A stretch of DNA of 64,000 bases from Mobula hypostoma. Taxonomy: Eukaryota. The notes beneath the pieces were generated by a model that saw only the letters and a list, made by a program, of their open reading frames with translations, was not told the origin of the DNA and ran no database searches. Location: NCBI RefSeq assembly GCF_963921235.1, contig NC_086097.1, forward strand, positions 22,198,001 to 22,262,000. Reading direction: 5' to 3'. Shown piece by piece: positions 2,853 to 64,000 of the stretch (within the stretch, counting starts at the first letter, position 1; every line of letters starts with the position of its first letter). The position numbers were made by a program, and so were the translations under genes.

Positions 2853-3064
2853 GCTTCCCGGAGCAGTGTTGATATCACAGGATGAGGAATGTAAGGAGAA
2901 ACCATGGAGGAGAGGGAGATGGGGAGAGATAAAAAGGGGGGTCTGGAGTTTGGAGTCCAGCACATAAAAGAAAGTTGCAGAATTTACAGTCAAGATGACA
3001 CCATGCTGCGGTCTCCATTGAGACAATGGCTCAGACTCAGTTGCTTTTTAAGTTTGTGGGGATT

Positions 3065-3472
3065 GTTTTGGGGATAGAGAGGTATGTGAGGGTCATGTTA
3101 GGGCTCAGGAACAGGGATATGGGAGAGTTAGGGGTCAGCTTTGGGTTTAGGGATAGGGAAGTGGGGGAGTTAGAGGACATGTTAGGATTTAGGGACTGGG
3201 ATTTGAAGGAATTAAGAGGTCAAGTCAGGGCTCAGGGACAGAAATGTGGGGAGGTAGAGGTCAGGTCAGGGTTTCGGGCCAGAGATGTGAAGGAGTTGGA
3301 GGTCAGGTCAGGGCTTAGGGACAGAAATGTGGGGGGTTAGAGGTCAGGTTAGGGTTTCGGGACAGGGATGTGAAGGAGTTAGAGACTAGGTTAGGGTTTA
3401 GGGACAGCGATTTGAAAGAGTTAGTGGTCAGGTCAGGGCTTAAAGACAGAGATGTGGGGAGTTAGAGGCCAG
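3065..3472. repeat. Degenerate 42-bp G-rich minisatellite, about 9-10 copies
   Basis: Unit like GAGGTCAGGTCAGGGCTTAGGGACAGAAATGTGGGGGGTTAG; gives the 14-aa periodicity in ORF 3026-3340. Confidence 0.85.
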
Positions 3473-8399: not shown

Positions 8400-8529
8400 T
8401 ATTACCACATATATGTAGTAAATGCATCTTATTATTTATTAATTTATATATTACCACATATAAATTAATAAATAATGATGCATTTACAACACGTCAAATT
8501 GTAAAAGTATTGTGCTACTGGCACTCCAT

Positions 8530-32387: not shown

Positions 32388-33005
32388 TTAGAAGGGATGC
32401 AGAAGTTTTAGAGAGTGTGCAGAGGAGATTTGCCAGGATACTGCCTGGATTAGAGGGGATGTCTTATGAAAATAGGTTGAGCAGACGAGGGTTTTTCTCT
32501 TTGTAATCAAGGAGGAATAGTGGTAAGTCTTGGCCCGAAACGTCGACTGTTTACTCTTTTCTATAAACACTGCCCGGCCTGCTGAGTTCCTCCAGCATTT
32601 GTATGTGTTGCTTTGGATTTCCAGCATCTGCAATCTTCCCCATGCTGATTAATAGTGGTGAGTAGATAGAGGTGTTCAAGATAATCAGAGGCAAGATACA
32701 AGATAATGCAGTGGGCAACTACTGACTTTTTCCCAGATAGGATGAGAGGTCTTAACTTTCAGGTGTTTGGAGGAAAGTATAGGGGGTTTGTCAAAGGCGG
32801 GTTTTTCACACAGAGAGTGGTCGGCATGTGGAACACACTGCTGAGATGGCAGTAGGGGCAGATACATTAGGGACATTTAAGGTAGACACCTGCATGAAAA
32901 AATGGAGGGCTGTGTATTGGAGGGGAAGGGTTAGATTGATCTTGGATAGGTTAAAGGGACAGCGTAACACCGTGGGTCAAAGGGCCTGTACTGTGCTATG
33001 TTTTG
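32388..33005 (+). mobile_element. CR1 3' fragment interrupted by a PLE tail insertion
   Basis: GAGAGTGTGCAGAGGAGATTT..TTTTCACACAGAGAGTGG..AAGGGCCTGTACTGTG. Confidence 0.7.
32529..32650 (+). mobile_element. 5'-truncated PLE tail with 13-bp TSD
   Basis: GCCCGAAACGTCGACTG..GCTGAGTTCCTCCAGCATTT..CCAGCATCTGCA; TSD AATAGTGGT(A/G)AGT at 32516-32528 and 32651-32663. Confidence 0.75.
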
Positions 33006-35484: not shown

Positions 35485-36304
35485 GACTCGAGGAAATCTG
35501 CAGATGCTGGAAATTCAAGCAACACACACAAAAGTTGCCGGTGAACGCAGCAGGCCAGGCAGCATCTATAGGAAGAGGTACAGTCGACATTTCAGGCCGG
35601 AATCCTTCATCAGGACTAACTGAAAGAAGAGATAGTAAGAGATTTGAAAGTGGGAGGGGGAGGGGGAGATCCAAAATGATAGGAGAAGACAGGAGGGGAG
35701 GGGTGGATCTAAGAGCTGGACAGTTGATTGGCAAAAGGGATACCAGGCTGGAGAAGGGAGAGGATCATGGGATGGGAAGCCTGGGGAGAAAAAGAAGAGG
35801 GGAGGGGAGCCCGGAGGGTGGAGAGCAGGCAAGGAGTTATAGTGAGAGGGACAGAGAGGGAAAAAAATGGGGGAAAAAATAAAAAATATATTAAATAAAT
35901 AAATAAGGGATGGGGTGTGAAGGGGAGGAGGGGCATTAATGGAAGTTAGAGAAATCAATATTCATGCCATCAAGTTGGAGGCTACCCAGACGGAATATAA
36001 GGTGTTGTTCCTCCAACCTGAGTGTGGCTTCACCTTGACAGTAGAGGAGGCTGTGGATAGACATATCAGAATGGGAAGGGACGTGGAATTAAAATGTGTG
36101 GCCACTGGGAGATTTTGCTTTCTCTGGCGGACAGAGCGTAGGAGTTCAGCGAATCGGTCTCCCAGCCTGCGCCGGGTCTTGCCAATATATAAAAGGCCGC
36201 ACCGGGAGCACCAGACGCAGTATATCACCCCAGCCGACTCACAGGTGAAGTGTCGCCTCACCTGGAAGGACTGTCTAGGGCCCTGAATGGTGGTGAGGGA
36301 GGAA
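35485..36304 (-). mobile_element. Penelope-like element (Neptune-type): GIY-YIG endonuclease and 3' UTR
   Basis: ORF 35962-36324: FTCESAGVIYCVWCSRCGLLYIGKTRRRLGDRFAE..PVATHFN; hammerhead motif in the tail. Confidence 0.92.
35581..35622 (-). ncRNA. Minimal type I hammerhead ribozyme motif
   Basis: - strand CAGTTAGTC-CTGATGA-AGGATTCCGGCCT-GAAA-TG-TC-GACTG. Core CUGANGA/GAAA/UC is intact; stem I TAGTC/GACTG; stem II AGG/CCT. Confidence 0.75.
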
Positions 36305-40675: not shown

Positions 40676-41028
40676 GTAAGCGTCGATAGCTGCATTCTTT
40701 CACAGGCGAATATCCAAATGTTCCATCGAAATATGTATTTGATTTGCGCTCTTCAGAAAGCCACTAACTCAATGAATGTCATTGAGCAGAGCTGGTACAC
40801 TGACACCTGAGCACCCGTTTAATTAATAGTTGCACTGGTTTTATTTGTCATCAATGCACAGCTTACCTTAAAATGATAGTCTAAGGTAAACTGACGGCTC
40901 CCTTCCCCTGATATTTGTAATAATGAGTAGACCATCGTTTAATGGTTCTCACAATAGCACCTGAACAAAAGCTAAAATTAACATATTAGTACCATCGTTC
41001 AAATGCCACAGAAAGAAACATCTTCTGA

Positions 41029-41155
41029 ACACAAGAGATTCTGCAGATGCTGGAAATCCAAAGCAACACACACAAAATGCTGCAGGAAATCAACAGGTTA
41101 GCCAGTGTCTATGGAAATGAATAAACAGATGGCATTTCGGGCCAAGAACCTTCTT
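41029..41155 (-). mobile_element. PLE tail, 5'-truncated within the hammerhead
   Basis: CTGCAGATGCTGGAAATCC..CACACAAAATGCTG; TCTTCTGAA on both flanks is a possible TSD. Confidence 0.6.
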
Positions 41156-41487: not shown

Positions 41488-41935
41488 CACTTTGTCGAGC
41501 ACCTTTGTTCTGTCCGCCACAAAAGGTGGGATTTCTCGGTGGCCATCCATTTCAATTTGACTTCCCATTCCCATTCTGACATGTCGGCCCATGAAGAGAC
41601 CAAACTCAGGGTGGAGGACCAGCACCACATATTCTGTCTGGGTAGTCTCCAACCTGATAGGCATGAACATCGATTTCACTGAGTTCTGGTCATTTCTCCC
41701 CCATCCGTTTCTCTTTTTTCCTATTCCCCATTCTAGTTCCCCTCTTACCCCTTTTCTTCTCCTCACCTGCTCATCACCTCCCTCTGGTGGCTTCCTCCTC
41801 CTTTTTTTCCTTTGCCTACTGTTCTGATCCGCCAGATCCCTTCTTCTTCAACCTTTTGCTTCTTCCACCTATCACTTCTGAGCTTCTTACTTCAACACCC
41901 CACCCCACCCACCCTCCTCTCCTCTAACCTGATCT
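41488..41935 (+). mobile_element. Degenerate Neptune-type PLE endonuclease C-terminus and UTR
   Basis: FVEHLCSVR..VAIHFN..SHSD..LRVEDQHHIFCLGSLQP, then a pyrimidine-rich UTR. Confidence 0.75.
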
Positions 41936-53954: not shown

Positions 53955-54250
53955 CAAGTGTTGTTCCTCCACCCTGAGGGTGGCTTCATCTTGGGACAAG
54001 AGGAGGCTATAGATCCCACTCATCGGAATGGGAACTGGAATCGTAATTAAAATGTTTGGCCACTGGGAAGTCCCTCTTGTGGAGAAGGTTGCCAAAGGTG
54101 CTTGACGAACTGGTTCCCAAATTTGCAATGGATCTCACCAATGTAGAAGAGGACAAATTAGGAGCACGAGACATGATAGACGGTCCCCAACAAACTTGCA
54201 GGTGAAGTGTTGCCTTGCCTGGCAGGACTCCGGATGGAGATGAGGGAAGA
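53955..54250 (-). mobile_element. Degenerate Neptune-type PLE endonuclease fragment
   Basis: DFPVAKHFN..QDEATLRVEEQHL. Confidence 0.7.
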
Positions 54251-54444
54251 GGGATGCTTGCAGGGATAAGTGCCTGGAGGGACTTCTCTGTTGTGCAATC
54301 AAAAAATTCACTTTGTAAATTCATTGATGGTATATGTTTTGTAAATCCATTCTGACTCAGCTTAATTAACCCAAACCTCTGGAACGTAGATCCCTGATTC
54401 TGTTTTCTAAAACCATATTCATCACAGTTTTTAAACTAGCCACC

Positions 54445-54920
54445 AAGATGACCTGGGAATTGGGTCAGTTGGCATTTACAGGATTCCTTGTGAATATGGA
54501 GCAGGCAATGTTGGCTAAATGGGACGCACAGTGGAAACCCGCATCAAGGAGCACAGGCAGTGTACCCGTTTTGGTTACCAGAGAAATCACAACAACAGAA
54601 CATTGGACTCCCAATGGCTATAGGATTGACCTCAAAAGGCACAAAACTACTGTGCCATGCCAATGGCTTTGGGGACTGCTTGGTAAAGGAAGCCATTGAA
54701 ATAAATCTAGAGGAAAAATATTTTAACAAAGACAAAGGTCTCGCTTTAAGTAAGAACTGGAATTCAATTATAAATGAGGTGGGAGAGCAGAAATCTGATT
54801 GGATGAGGACTAACCAACCAGGAGGGACGGACTACAGGGGTAGACATGCCCAGGATTCATCCCTGAAGAAGAAACATCAATACCTGCACCCAGCTGGAAA
54901 GCCTGAAGTTTTTATTCGCA
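54445..54920 (+). mobile_element. Penelope/Poseidon-type PLE: GIY-YIG endonuclease and 3' end
   Basis: DDLGIGSVGIYRIPCEYG..*MGRTVETRIKEH, then LVKEAIEI..FNKDKGLALSKNW; hammerhead remnant CTGAAGA-A-GAAACATC at 54863-54878. Confidence 0.8.
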
Positions 54921-54940
54921 ACCAACCTGTAACTGGAAGG

Positions 54941-56250
54941 CCACACACACCAAAGTTTCTGGTGGACGCAGCAGGCCAGGCAGCTTCTCTAGGAAGAGGT
55001 ACAGTTGACGTTTCAGGCTGAGACCCTTCGTCAGGACTAACTGAAGGAAGAGTAAGTAAGAGATTTGAAAGTGGGAGGGGGAAGGGGAGATCCAAAATGA
55101 TAGGAGAAGACAGGAGGGGGAGGGATGGAGCCAAGAGCTGGACAGGTGATTGGCAAAAGGGATATGAGAGGATCATGGGACAGGAGGCCCATGGAGAAGG
55201 AAAGGGGGGGGGGAACCAAGGATGGGCAAGGAGTATAGTCAGAGGGAGAAAAAGGAGAGAGAGAGTGTTTACATAAATAATGGATGGGGTACAAGGGGGA
55301 GGTGGGGCATTAGCAGAAGTTAGAGAAGTTGATGTTCATGCCATCAGGTTGGAGGCTACCCAGACAGAATATAAGGTGTTGTTCCTCCAACCTGAGTGTG
55401 GCTTCATCTTTACAGTAGAGGAGGCCGTGGATAGACATGTCAGAATGGGATGTGGAATTAAAATGTGTGGCCACTGGGAGATCCTGCTTTCCCTGGCGGA
55501 CAGAGTGTAGGTGTTCAGCAAAACGATCTCCCAGTCTGTGTCGGGTCTTGCCAATATATATATATATATATATATATAGAAGGCCACATCGGGAGAACTG
55601 GACGCAGTATATCACCCCAGCCAACTCGCAGGTGAAGTGTCGCCTCACCTGGAAGGACTGTCTGGGGCCCTGAATGGTGGTAAGGGAGGAAGTGTAAGGG
55701 CATGTGTAGCACTTGTTCCGCTTACAAGGATAAGTGCCAGGAGGGAGATCAGTGGGGAAGGATGGGGGGTATGAATGGACAAGGGAGTCGCGTAGGGAGA
55801 GGCTGGTGGGGTGGTAGGTGAGGACAAGGGGAATCCTATTCCTAGTGGGGTGATGGGAGGATGGAGTGAGAGCAGATGTGTGTGAAATGGGGGAGCTGCG
55901 CTTGAGAGCAGAGTTGATGGTGGAGGAAGGGAAGCCCCTTTCTTTTTATATATTTTTTAAAAAAAAAAGGACATCTCCCTCGTCCTGGAATGAAAAGCCT
56001 CATCCTGAGAGCAGATGCGGTGGAGACGGAGGAATTGCAAGAAGGGGATGGCATTTTTGCAAGAGACAGGATGAGAAGAGGAATAGTCCAGATAGCTGTG
56101 AGAGTCAGTAGGCTTATAGTAGACATCAGCAGATAAGCTGTCTCCAGAGACAGACAGAAAGATCTAGAAAAGGGAGGGAGGTGTCTGAAATGGACCAGGT
56201 AAACTTGAGGGCAGGGTGAAAGTTGGAGACAAAGTTAATAAAGTCAATGA
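54941..56250 (-). mobile_element. Neptune-type PLE, left (inverted) arm: RT C-terminus/thumb, Cys cluster, GIY-YIG, UTR
   Basis: FINFVSNFHPALKFT..LPFLD; YYKPTDSHSYL; GVIYCV..LLYI(YI)nG; (TA)n expansion at about 55554-55577; internal deletion at about 55799. Confidence 0.93.
55002..55043 (-). ncRNA. Minimal hammerhead ribozyme motif, core intact
   Basis: - strand CAGTTAGTC-CTGACGA-AGGGTCTCAGCCT-GAAA-CG-TC-AACTG with palindromic ACGT stem III. Confidence 0.75.
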
Positions 56251-56252
56251 GG

Positions 56253-57492
56253 AATTCCTCCATCTCCGCCACATCTGCTCTCAGGATGAGCCTTTTCATT
56301 CCAGGACAAGGGAGATGTCCTTTTTTTTTAAAAGAAAAGGGCTTCCCTTCCTCCACCATCAACTCTGCTCTCATACGCATCTCCCCCATTTCATGCACAT
56401 CTGCTCTCACTCCATCCTCCCATCACCCCACTAGGAATAGGGTTCCCCTGGTCCTCACCTACCACCCCAGCAGCCTCCGGGTCCAACATATTATTCTCCG
56501 TAACTTCCGCCACCTCCAACGGGATCCCACTACTAAGCACATCTTTCCCTCTTCTCCCCCGCCCCCCCCACCTTCTGCTTTCTGCAGGGATTGCTCCCTA
56601 CGCGACTCCCTTGTCCATTCATCCCCCCCATCGCTCCCCACTGATCTCCCTCCTGGCACTTATCCTTGTAAGCGGAACAAGTGCTACACATGCCCTTACA
56701 CTTCCTCCCTTACCACCATTCAGGGTCCCAGACAGTCCTTCCAGGTGAGGCGACACTTCACCTGTGAGTTGGCTGGGGTGATATACTGTGTCCGGTGCTC
56801 CCGATATGGCCTTCTATATATTGGCGAGACCCAACGCAGACTGGGAGATTGTTTTGCTGAACACCTACATTCTGTCCGCCAGAGAAAGCAGCATCTCCCA
56901 GTGGCCACACATTTTAATTTCACATGCCATTCCCATTCTGATATGTCTATCCACGGCCTCATCTACTGTAAAGATGAAGCCACACTCAGGTTGGAAGAAC
57001 AACACCTCATATTCCGTCTGGGTAGCCTCCAACCTGATGGCATGAACATTGACTTCTCAAACTTCCGCTAATGCCCCACCTCCTCCTCATACCCCATCCG
57101 TTATTTATATACAACATTCTTTCTCTCTCTCTCCTGTTTCTCCCTCTGTCCCTCTCACTATACCCCTTACCCATCCTCTGGGTTTCCCCCCTCCCCCTTT
57201 TCCTGCCCCCTGGGCCTCCTGTCCCATGATCCCCTCATATCCCTTTTGCCAATCACCTGTCCAGCTCTTGGCTCCATCCCTCCCTCTCCTGTCTTCTCCT
57301 ATCATTTTGGATCTCCCCCTCCCACTTTCAAATCCCTTACTAACTCTTCCTTCAGTTAGTCCTGACATAGGGTCTCGGTCCGAAACGTCAACTGTACCTC
57401 TTCCTAGAGATGCTGCCTGGCCTGCTGTGTCCACCAGCAACTTTGATGTATGTGGCTTGAATTTCCAGCATCTGCAGAATTCCTCGTGTTTA
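56253..57492 (+). mobile_element. Neptune-type PLE, right arm: linker, Cys cluster, GIY-YIG, UTR and tail
   Basis: ORF 56223-57071: RVPLVLTYHP, CKRNKCYTC, VIYCVRC..LYIGETQRRL..EH..HF..LEEQHLIFRLGSLQPDGMN. Confidence 0.95.
57352..57394 (+). ncRNA. Hammerhead motif with mutated core (CTGACAT), probably inactive
   Basis: CAGTTAGTC-CTGACAT-AGGGTCTCGGTCC-GAAACGTC-AACTG. Confidence 0.6.
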
Positions 57493-57800
57493 CTGTAACT
57501 GGAAGGGATGTCCTCATATGATTGCTTCAACAAAGGGGGTCACATATGCCATTTCCCAATCCACTGGCACCTGTCCTCTTATGTGGGGAATATTGGAAAG
57601 ATACAGTCCTTCCAGTATCTCCACACCCTTTATTAAGTTGAGATCCATACCAGGTGACTGACCATCGCCAAGAACTGGAACTCTTTCCAGTACAATCTTC
57701 CAATCAGATTGCACCTCATCGATTGTTCCCACCATTTCTAATTCTATTTGTACTTTATTGACATCCTGTTCCTTAGTAAACAACAATATGAAGTTCCATT
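57493..57800 (-). mobile_element. Old CR1 fragment, the target of the PLE insertion
   Basis: ORF 57514-57786: FTKE..SPG..GQVPVDWEMAYVTPF. Confidence 0.6.
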
Positions 57801-57967
57801 AATATTCATGGCTTGCCCTGCACCTCTAGGCATTTATCACCATTTTTATCCCAAACGCATCCTACCCTACCTTCTACTGTTCTATTCCAACCAATTTTAA
57901 TTATTATACAGTTATTCATCCCAAAGTATTACCAGGATTTGAAAAGTTTCACTAGGTTTATACCCAT

Positions 57968-58081
57968 TTCAGAATCAGGCTTGATATCACCATCAGATGT
58001 AGTGAAATTTGTTAAATTAGTGGCAACAGTACAATGAAATACATGATAATATAGAAAAAATAAGTAGATCAATTACAGTAA

Positions 58082-59889: not shown

Positions 59890-60022
59890 TGTTCTGCTGA
59901 AGGGTCTTGGCCTGAAACATCGACTGTACTCTTTTCTCAAAATGCTGCCTGGCCTGCTGAGTTTCTCCAGCATTTTGTGCATTTTGTTTGGATTTCCAGC
60001 ATCTGCAGATTTTCTCTTGTTT
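59890..60022 (+). mobile_element. PLE tail with degenerate hammerhead
   Basis: CTGCTGA-AGGGTCTTGGCCT-GAAACATC-GACTG, then GCTGAGTTTCTCCAGCATTTTG..CCAGCATCTGCAG. Confidence 0.7.
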
Positions 60023-60649
60023 GCCCAGACCCCAATCCTACTTATAAGCCAATGTGGGCAAAATTCCTGACTACAACATAGAGTTCACCACGCAACCAAT
60101 CAGCAACGTGACCCCTTCCCTACATCACAATTGAGTTTCCATGATGACCAATCAGCTGATTGAAAATAATATAAAGGATAAGCATTCATAGGACGTACCA
60201 CAAGTCAACAGCACACTGATAATATCTCCTCGTATGGTGATGAAATGTTAGCAAGTAAATCACCAAGATCAGGGAACGACTCAACCCAACCAATTAGCAC
60301 AATGCTTCACAGCACCAGTAATCAGTTTTCAACTCCTGCCGTTGTCTGTAAGGCATTTGTATGCTTTCCCTGCGACTATGTGGGTTTCCTTTGTGTGCTC
60401 CAGTTCCCTCCAACATTTGAGAAAGATGTACGGGTTAGCCTTAGTGAGTTGTAGGCATGCCATGTTGGTGCCAGAGGCATGGTGACACTTGCGGGCTGCC
60501 CCCAGCACATTCTCGCACTGCGTTGGACATTGCCACAAACAACACACTTCTCGGCCCTCTCCATAGATGTCTAACCTGCTGAATTTCTCCAGCATTTTAT
60601 GTGTCACTGCATGCTTCGACGTACATATGACATATAAGCAAAAACGTGT

Positions 60650-63475: not shown

Positions 63476-63569
63476 CTGAAGATCATCTTTTAAACTTTAA
63501 TTTACATTGCCTTCATACTTCATTGGATCTGCTGTGCTTCATGAAGCACTGAAAGATTTAAAGTGTAAT

Positions 63570-63747
63570 ACACATAAAAATGCTAGAGGAACTTAGCAGT
63601 CAGGTTGCATCTATGGGAGGAATAAACTGTTGACATTTTGGGCCGAGACCCTACATCAGGACTGGAAAAGAAAGAGGAAGAGCTCCTCCAGCATTTTGTG
63701 TGTGTGTTACTCTGGATTTCCAGCATACTCAGAATCTTGTCTTGATA
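63570..63747. mobile_element. Miniature inverted PLE-tail insertion with 14-bp TSD
   Basis: - arm at 63570-63680 with a decayed hammerhead, + tail arm at 63681-63747; TSD ATTTAAAGT(G/A)TAAT at 63556-63569 and 63748-63761. Confidence 0.7.
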
Positions 63748-64000
63748 ATTTAAAGTATAATTTTTTTCGAAAGTTCATTTACATAATGTGGGTGTGACTG
63801 CAAGAACATAATGTGCTGTTCACATTATGAAAAGGAAATAGAGATCGGAGAGGGTGGTTCTGGAAGTGTGAGGATTTAATTATCAAGAAGGGAGAAACAG
63901 ACTGGATCTCCTTGCACTTTAGAAGAGAAAACAGAAAAGTGATCTAAATAACACCTTTAAGATTATGGATGGGCTTGGTAAATGTAGCACACACACAACA

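Follow-up and report, generated by a model that had tools for sequence, protein, structure and literature searches.

Inverted 5′-truncated copies, a one-sided tail of 30-40 bp, a flanking target-site duplication (TSD) and palindromes at junctions are described as typical of Penelope-like elements (PLEs) by Craig et al. 2021 (PMC8557442) and Arkhipova et al. 2013 (PMC3846280), who attribute them either to self-priming on an antisense template or to resolution by the endonuclease and describe the PLE cycle as undefined; the same account is repeated in PMC8969392 (statements on these and the other papers cited here refer to the parts of them consulted). Here, we analyze an insertion of this kind in a 64,000-nucleotide stretch of the Mobula hypostoma genome (assembly GCF_963921235.1, contig NC_086097.1, positions 22,198,001 to 22,262,000 of the forward strand), hereafter the window. 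Between two TSD copies lies a 2,552-bp unit of two 5′-truncated Neptune-type PLE arms that point outward. Like published endonuclease-positive (EN+) PLE inverted insertions, it carries a head-to-head inverted 5′-truncated copy at the 5′ end, a TSD around the whole, a 30-40-bp tail on one end only, a junction palindrome and a terminal-region hammerhead, and the layout of inverted truncated copy, one-sided tail, TSD and junction palindrome is already published for PLEs. It differs in that both arms are truncated pieces of open reading frame (ORF) of 1.2-1.3 kb, whereas the published units hold a full ORF between direct pseudo-long terminal repeats (pseudo-LTRs) plus a short inverted one. Compared with the rotifer examples, the TSD is 14 bp rather than 8-10 bp, and the host is a cartilaginous fish.

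Two further systems are close. For PAc, the Poseidon element of Anolis carolinensis (Frangieh et al. 2024, PMC11167929), the protein cuts both strands and extends them in vitro with little homology between primer and RNA, from two start sites that bracket the tail, and hammerhead cleavage is not needed for insertion. The unit would be alike in these respects, the two tail-bracketing start sites matching its two arm ends; however, PAc belongs to the Poseidon clade and the unit to Neptune, the target here is not AT-rich, and the parts of PMC11167929 consulted do not treat inverted insertions or the use of different sites at each end in one event. In the form of L1 twin priming that leaves an internal duplication (Kojima 2010, PMC2912911; bioRxiv 10.1101/2024.08.27.596794), two target ends are primed on RNA, giving an inverted 5′-side arm, a head-to-head joint and a TSD of about 14 bp, and the arms overlap if the first cDNA extends beyond the second start. 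The unit resembles such an event but is not an L1, because it has no poly(A): priming here does not use poly(A), the enzyme is of the GIY-YIG type, the second start falls at a preferred position, 36-52 nt from the end, rather than at a chance internal match, and the overlap reaches 1.2 kb, as against a median of 22 bp in L1. The locus itself matters little, being one dead copy among very many with a published build that occurs twice in the window; its value is that of a clean, dated example. What we add is that one tail is found in 9/9 pairs with both ends visible and that either arm may be the longer, a rule that separates candidate mechanisms of PLE integration.

Architecture of the inverted unit

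The TSD CTGTAACTGGAAGG is exact, its two copies (54927-54940 and 57493-57506, 14 bp each) are the only ones in the window on either strand, and among random end pairs (±5 nt) a full 13/13 match arose in 2 of 20,000 trials. This single TSD encloses the whole unit, and neither arm alone has its own. The left arm (54941-56251, minus strand) is 5′-truncated and tail-less and reaches 216 nt further into the reverse transcriptase (RT) than the right arm (56253-57492, plus strand), which is likewise 5′-truncated and comprises the thumb end, linker, GIY-YIG endonuclease, 3′ region and tail, its GIY-YIG frame ending at a stop at 57069-57071. A first-pass annotation, made by a model from the letters of the stretch, had described two outward Neptune-type arms within an exact 14-bp repeat, and both the arm alignment and the TSD search agree with it; the inner end of the left arm, given there as 56250, moves to 56251 by alignment.

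The arms are identical at 1,000 of 1,067 aligned columns (93.7%), and each holds sequence missing from the other. The loop (56037-56252, minus strand), earlier put at about 215 nt and measured here at 216 nt, contains RT C-terminus and thumb sequence of the left arm only, position 56252 being an extra base of neither arm. Its translation matches the PLE protein P0001 at 28/33 and 46/66 residues, and in family contigs the loop sequence is colinear with the start of the right arm. A 117-nt linker stretch of the right arm (56477-56593, plus strand) has no counterpart in the left arm, where the gap falls between 55800 and 55799; because the stretch is colinear with P0001 and covered by family contigs, the difference reads as a deletion in the left arm and not as an insertion in the right. 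Two expansions, (TA)n at 55556-55580 and an A/T run at 55940-55970, arose in the left arm only. The tail (57457-57492, plus strand), present in the right arm only, is 36 nt long; the overrun of 37 nt claimed earlier is obtained only by counting one base shared with the TSD. At the head-to-head joint lies a perfect 12-bp palindrome (56249-56260). As background, 0.2% of window positions have a 12-bp palindrome within 3 nt, and a looser search finds one at 204 of 5,000 random positions.

Evidence for a single integration event

That the unit arose in one integration from one source, as first proposed, is well supported by the TSD, an empty-site pattern in 2 of 4 sequencing runs, rare letters shared between the arms and a bracketed arm divergence, and we hold it with high confidence. 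Four runs were compared over 56037-58070: X1 (organism A, which may be that of the window), X5 (B), X12 (D) and X14 (E). The X1 contig covers 57468-58046 with 0 differences and joins 25 tail letters to the flank, and the X5 contig, starting at 57466 with 12 differences and 5 gaps, joins 27. In X12 and X14, alignment of a single flank contig begins exactly at 57493, where the right TSD copy starts, and is preceded by 80 and 51 unaligned letters, respectively. An empty site would look like this, and it is the pattern that the first-pass annotation had suggested looking for in related organisms. Three points weigh on the other side: the X1 and X5 tail overlaps fall short of the 31-letter rule for bridging, the empty-site pattern presupposes that the loose letters in X12 and X14 match the left flank, and the central junction is bridged by no contig among the 32 pieces listed for the four runs over that interval. 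The "opposite strands" joints at 56037-56263, considered as support for the junction, turned out to be ordinary colinear family copies and were dropped.

The missing bridge at the center, among the contigs listed, is what an assembly artefact in the form of a fold-back chimera would leave. Fold-back of a read is not expected to give arms that differ by 6% and by indels, nor does it account for the TSD, for a right junction present in the runs of two organisms, or for the same build at 63.6 kb; we regard such an artefact as hardly credible.

The divergence of the arms places the event in time. Flank divergence is 2.1% to B (X5), 5.4% to E (X14) and 7.6% to D (X12). Arm-arm divergence is 6.3% (95% range 4.9-7.9), or 4.9% outside CpG; it exceeds flank divergence to X5 and overlaps that to X14 and X12, as expected if the insertion followed shortly upon the split from D and E and the two arms started out identical.

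Shared letters point to a common source. Family variant places comprise the 40 listed and 151 more beyond these. Among the places listed, 17 aligned ones have, in each of the four runs, a letter other than that of the right arm in at least 90% of family depth; at 3 of these 17 (56423, 57431 and 57454) the left arm has the same rare letter as the right, with 0.29 expected and P 0.003 if sites are independent, linkage making the true P larger. Six letters among the places listed are common to both arms, frequent in A and B and rare in D and E; where it overlaps them, a related copy at 35.5 kb (35486-36304) has the D/E form, and at site 57335, which has an A/B-type letter, the arms differ. This 35.5-kb copy carries markers of a different subfamily, with letters common in D and E. 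At its 18 CpG sites, 7/7 of those decayed in both arms have changed in the same direction (P 0.006), which could also reflect the subfamily consensus. Three variants that the first-pass annotation had named as shared are indeed in both arms and absent from the 35.5-kb copy, but as CpG-type changes against a single older copy of another subfamily they are weak evidence by themselves and were set aside.

Could the arms instead stem from two independent insertions, one of which landed in the 5′ end of an earlier one, and have been homogenized by gene conversion afterwards? The family is a very high-copy Neptune-type PLE, with a summed contig depth of about 1e6 on the arm versus about 13 on the flank (run X1; not a copy number), and the longest identical run between the arms spans 91 columns (P 0.055), which is borderline as a sign of conversion and was not retained as one. 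Yet one TSD surrounds the whole unit and none a single arm, the empty-site pattern begins at that TSD, the shared rare letters adjoin differences (in one case the end of the left arm is 2-3 nt away), and differences are evenly spread at 8-17 per 180 columns. We consider this history very improbable.

Pairs of arms and the one-tail rule

The same build recurs at 63.6 kb, where a second, small head-to-head insertion of a related subfamily (63556-63761) is flanked by a 14-bp TSD with one mismatch (63556-63569 and 63748-63761). Its tail-less left arm (minus strand) ends at the same point as that of the main unit and bears a hammerhead remnant, its right arm has a 37-nt tail, its junction palindrome is imperfect (6/7 pairs), and microhomology at its target amounts to about 4 nt plus further likeness. 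Metagenome contigs gave 0 matches to the DNA pattern of the family; a scan with protein alignment gave distant relatives (30-48% identity), of which the best 80 of 313 confirmed stretches underlie the following counts. At the DNA level, 61 of these 80 loci match ten reference copies. The 3′ ends are bimodal: of 45 that fall no more than 160 nt from the end, 22 are 0-3 nt and 14 are 39-52 nt away from it. Nine loci contain, in all, ten head-to-head pairs whose inverted arm is 3′-terminal (L009, L013, L015, L028, L031, L033 with two, L036, L064 and L078), the L064 pair having been added by hand with 93 nt between its blocks. Left out of the count were L001, L014, L016, L061 and L073 (which belong to another family, run into a contig end or have their repeat outside the element) and L012, L047, L058 and L059 (inverted piece internal).

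Both outer ends are visible in 7 of the metagenome pairs, and 5 of these 7 have a candidate TSD of 9-15 bp, in some cases offset by up to 13 nt from the estimated end (null 8/600). Together with the two window units, 9/9 pairs with both ends visible carry a tail on exactly one arm (P ≤ 0.002 if the arms were independent). Solitary 3′ ends are mixed in a hand-picked set (14 with tail, 7 without), and the four solitary Neptune-type 3′ ends in the window all have one. The tail-less arm is the longer in 7/12 pairs, three of the 12 being judged from one visible end; a rule that it is always the longer was accordingly dropped, as was the junction palindrome as a general rule, a stem of at least 6 bp being found at 1/11 junctions. 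A concealed inverted tail next to solitary copies that lack one was likewise rejected, with no match above shuffled scores in the 5 copies that have upstream room.

A proposed twin-priming model for the insertion

Because there is one tail per pair while either arm may be the longer, we favor twin priming at two known start sites, and for the unit itself we lean towards one integration in which both target ends were primed on one RNA. The endonuclease would cut the target with a 14-nt stagger, the observed TSD recording its length, and leave two 3′ ends. One would prime at the tail-distal start site and give the right arm, and the other, 36-37 nt upstream, the left arm, the arm end points being those observed and priming there being proposed by analogy with PAc. 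Both cDNAs would derive from the same RNA, as the one-tail rule suggests, with the tail-primed cDNA running about 1.2 kb through a stretch already copied. The two would stop 216 nt apart and their 3′ ends would be joined head to head with one extra base, by whatever route, leaving the 12-bp palindrome seen at the junction; neutral decay since then would have brought the arms to their present 6% difference. The inverted arm of L078, which is the tail alone, is as plain twin priming predicts. The first-pass annotation had instead proposed a strand switch on one template, which does not fit because each arm has sequence missing from the other: a single switch of one cDNA cannot yield a left-only loop together with a right-only tail, and a further deletion or second priming would also be needed to build the unit. 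A literature search by title and abstract found no twin-priming proposal for Penelope, and older papers on Penelope structure may already state a two-primer reading.

The one-tail rule would also follow naturally from self-priming, in which the tail-primed cDNA folds back, copies itself and is resolved 36 nt short, the loop then arising by asymmetric central deletion or template jumping. Central deletion of long inverted repeats is known. The near-hairpin junction of the second L033 pair (L033b) and the 12-bp palindrome of the unit speak for this route, palindromic junctions being read as self-priming in PMC3846280. A fold-back copy cannot outgrow its template, but in those 7/12 pairs the tail-less arm exceeds the other, with an excess of 216 nt in the unit and of 600-1,300 nt in L009, L015, L033a and L078, each of which would need its own later deletion; stems of at least 6 bp are confined to that one junction in 11, and the inner end of the left arm is not complementary to the start point of the right arm. 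Self-priming therefore appears unlikely for the unit.

Free arm lengths and the 1.2-kb overlap are explained directly, with no need for strand displacement, if both ends were primed in one event on two RNAs of the same source locus, one per dimer subunit, or on successive units of a tandem or circular RNA. A common source locus would give the shared rare letters, a dimer is predicted in PMC11167929, and tandem or circular templates are proposed in PMC4209133. By itself, however, this arrangement leaves the single tail in 9/9 pairs unexplained, and it accounts neither for the inverted arm of L078, which is tail only, nor for the short inverted internal pieces of L012, L047, L058 and L059; we think it improbable.

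Several observations tell against priming of both ends on one RNA, or limit what the pairs can say of it. A 1.2-kb overlap, set beside the 22-bp median in L1, obliges us to assume strand displacement over a kilobase, and homology between the left target end and the element is 1 base here, versus mostly 2-5 in L1 5′-inversions. Self-priming, as published, would suit the palindrome at the junction, and L033b has the appearance of a fold-back. Among the metagenome pairs, 2/7 show no TSD and 2/7 tail-less ends lie off the modal site, at 69 and 134 nt; these loci may stem from few host species and thus not be fully independent. One RNA and two identical RNAs, moreover, are inseparable by sequence.

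A broader reading, which we offer tentatively, is that one and the same process gives PLE insertions both their inverted layout and their one-sided tail: the target ends would be loaded on two fixed start sites of one RNA, one per dimer subunit, and the tail-primed cDNA would displace the other over more than 1 kb. If true, it would take the place of both published explanations, antisense-template self-priming and resolution by the endonuclease. Its prediction, countable in any long-read genome, is that the one-tail rule holds strictly while arm lengths are free.

Other inverted structures were seen among the metagenome loci. In L033, a span of 3.3 kb holds two distinct head-to-head insertions of one family (304-1928 and 2955-3126), the second with its near-hairpin junction and a 15-bp TSD that has 12 extra bases on one side. 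Neptune-type copies with an inverted internal piece at the 5′ junction occur at L012 1-540, L047 1256-1320, L058 1124-1243 and L059 902-1013, and likewise at L021 1-420, L069 2-466 and L007 378-554; these 5′-junction inversions resemble L1 5′ inversions or short fold-backs. In L016, a tailed copy lies inside a 62-bp inverted repeat of its flanks (541-602 and 1571-1631), and a 12-bp direct repeat lies close by; the copy may have inserted into a small palindromic element.

Family assignment

Loop and arms map in order onto P0001 as RT end, thumb, linker and GIY-YIG, and the RT core is not part of the insertion. Protein matches of the right arm are best in Hypanus sabinus (71%) and Rhincodon typus (61%), with 6 hits among 2,847 candidates, and the Pfam GIY-YIG match (E 0.007, 17 bits) is below the family cut-off of 22.6. 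A linker motif C-X4-C-xx-C of the Neptune/Nematis type (56667-56693, plus strand) is invariant in 7/7 aligned proteins and is separated by 23 residues from the Cys ahead of GIY. According to PMC8557442, the CX2-5CxxC motif is absent in Penelope/Poseidon, and by our own residue count in the rows of its Fig. S2, the corresponding distance is 25-27 in three Neptune rows and about 7 in Nematis rows. Motif and linker length thus appear to fit Neptune and not Poseidon or Nematis. In the GIY-YIG core of the right arm (56775-56831, plus strand) the second internal Cys is changed, and in the left arm the first, so that each arm has lost a different one of the two Cys between GIY and YIG that belong to the CCHH motif; in P0001 and P0002 neither is lost. 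The source of P0001 labels this near-complete PLE RT-endonuclease an isoform of a host kinase-domain protein; the gene model behind it has probably absorbed a PLE.

Hammerhead remnants

Hammerhead motifs were judged by hand against the metazoan PLE minimal hammerheads of Cervera and de la Peña 2014 (PMC4209133). The claim of a hammerhead in each arm holds as far as remnants go: both arms have one, both are damaged, and the right core is broken. The left remnant (55002-55039, minus strand) has intact CUGACGA and GAAAC boxes, C11.1 changed to U and the first stem I pair broken; the right one (57357-57394, plus strand) has the core CUGACAU (G8 to A, A9 to U), again with the first stem I pair broken. 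The core boxes CUGANGA and GAAA are therefore intact in the left arm and not in the right, whereas the conserved G10.1-C11.1 pair is kept in the right arm and is G-U in the left. Family contigs have A at 57368 in 97-100% of depth. A search of Rfam matched no hammerhead family and returned 5 weak unrelated matches only.

Both remnants share with the published motifs the type I layout, an extra base after A9 (between 9 and 10.1) and a palindromic 15.2-16.2, and opposite-strand pairs of hammerheads are noted in PMC4209133 too. They differ in being damaged and on opposite strands. Because a tandem dimeric hammerhead needs two same-strand copies, that fold cannot form here; in a read-through RNA the two copies would pair with each other. 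With hammerheads and ORF broken, the unit is a dead insertion with no demonstrated function.

Read-through RNA and surrounding sequence

The predicted fold of a read-through RNA has 86% of bases paired, with helices of up to 162 bp, and double-stranded RNA (dsRNA) from such a transcript, as suggested earlier, is possible. Should units of this kind be widespread in ray genomes and transcribed by read-through, they would form a large pool of long dsRNA.

Besides the copy at 35486-36304, Neptune-type fragments in the window lie at 41028-41151, 41491-41688, 53958-54282, 59891-60024 and 32527-32632. The left flank of the unit (about 54330-54920) holds a decayed PLE of another kind, which we take to be Poseidon-like, with a GIY-YIG-like frame and no linker motif nearby; the unit landed about 10-20 nt beyond its apparent 3′ end. 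As to host genes, 91 of 117 long open frames were scanned and gave retroelement families and one sub-threshold hit only, a scan in which short exons would be missed.

Palindromes of 130-230 bp are frequent in the metagenome contigs (for example L002 50-207, L005 2749-2882, L025 1565-1741, L033 2045-2214 and L035 1655-1841), and the one in L025 contains a hammerhead-like motif. In the window itself, a 78-bp AT-rich imperfect palindrome is found at 8414-8491, with a 14-15-bp direct repeat at 8400-8414 and 8449-8463.

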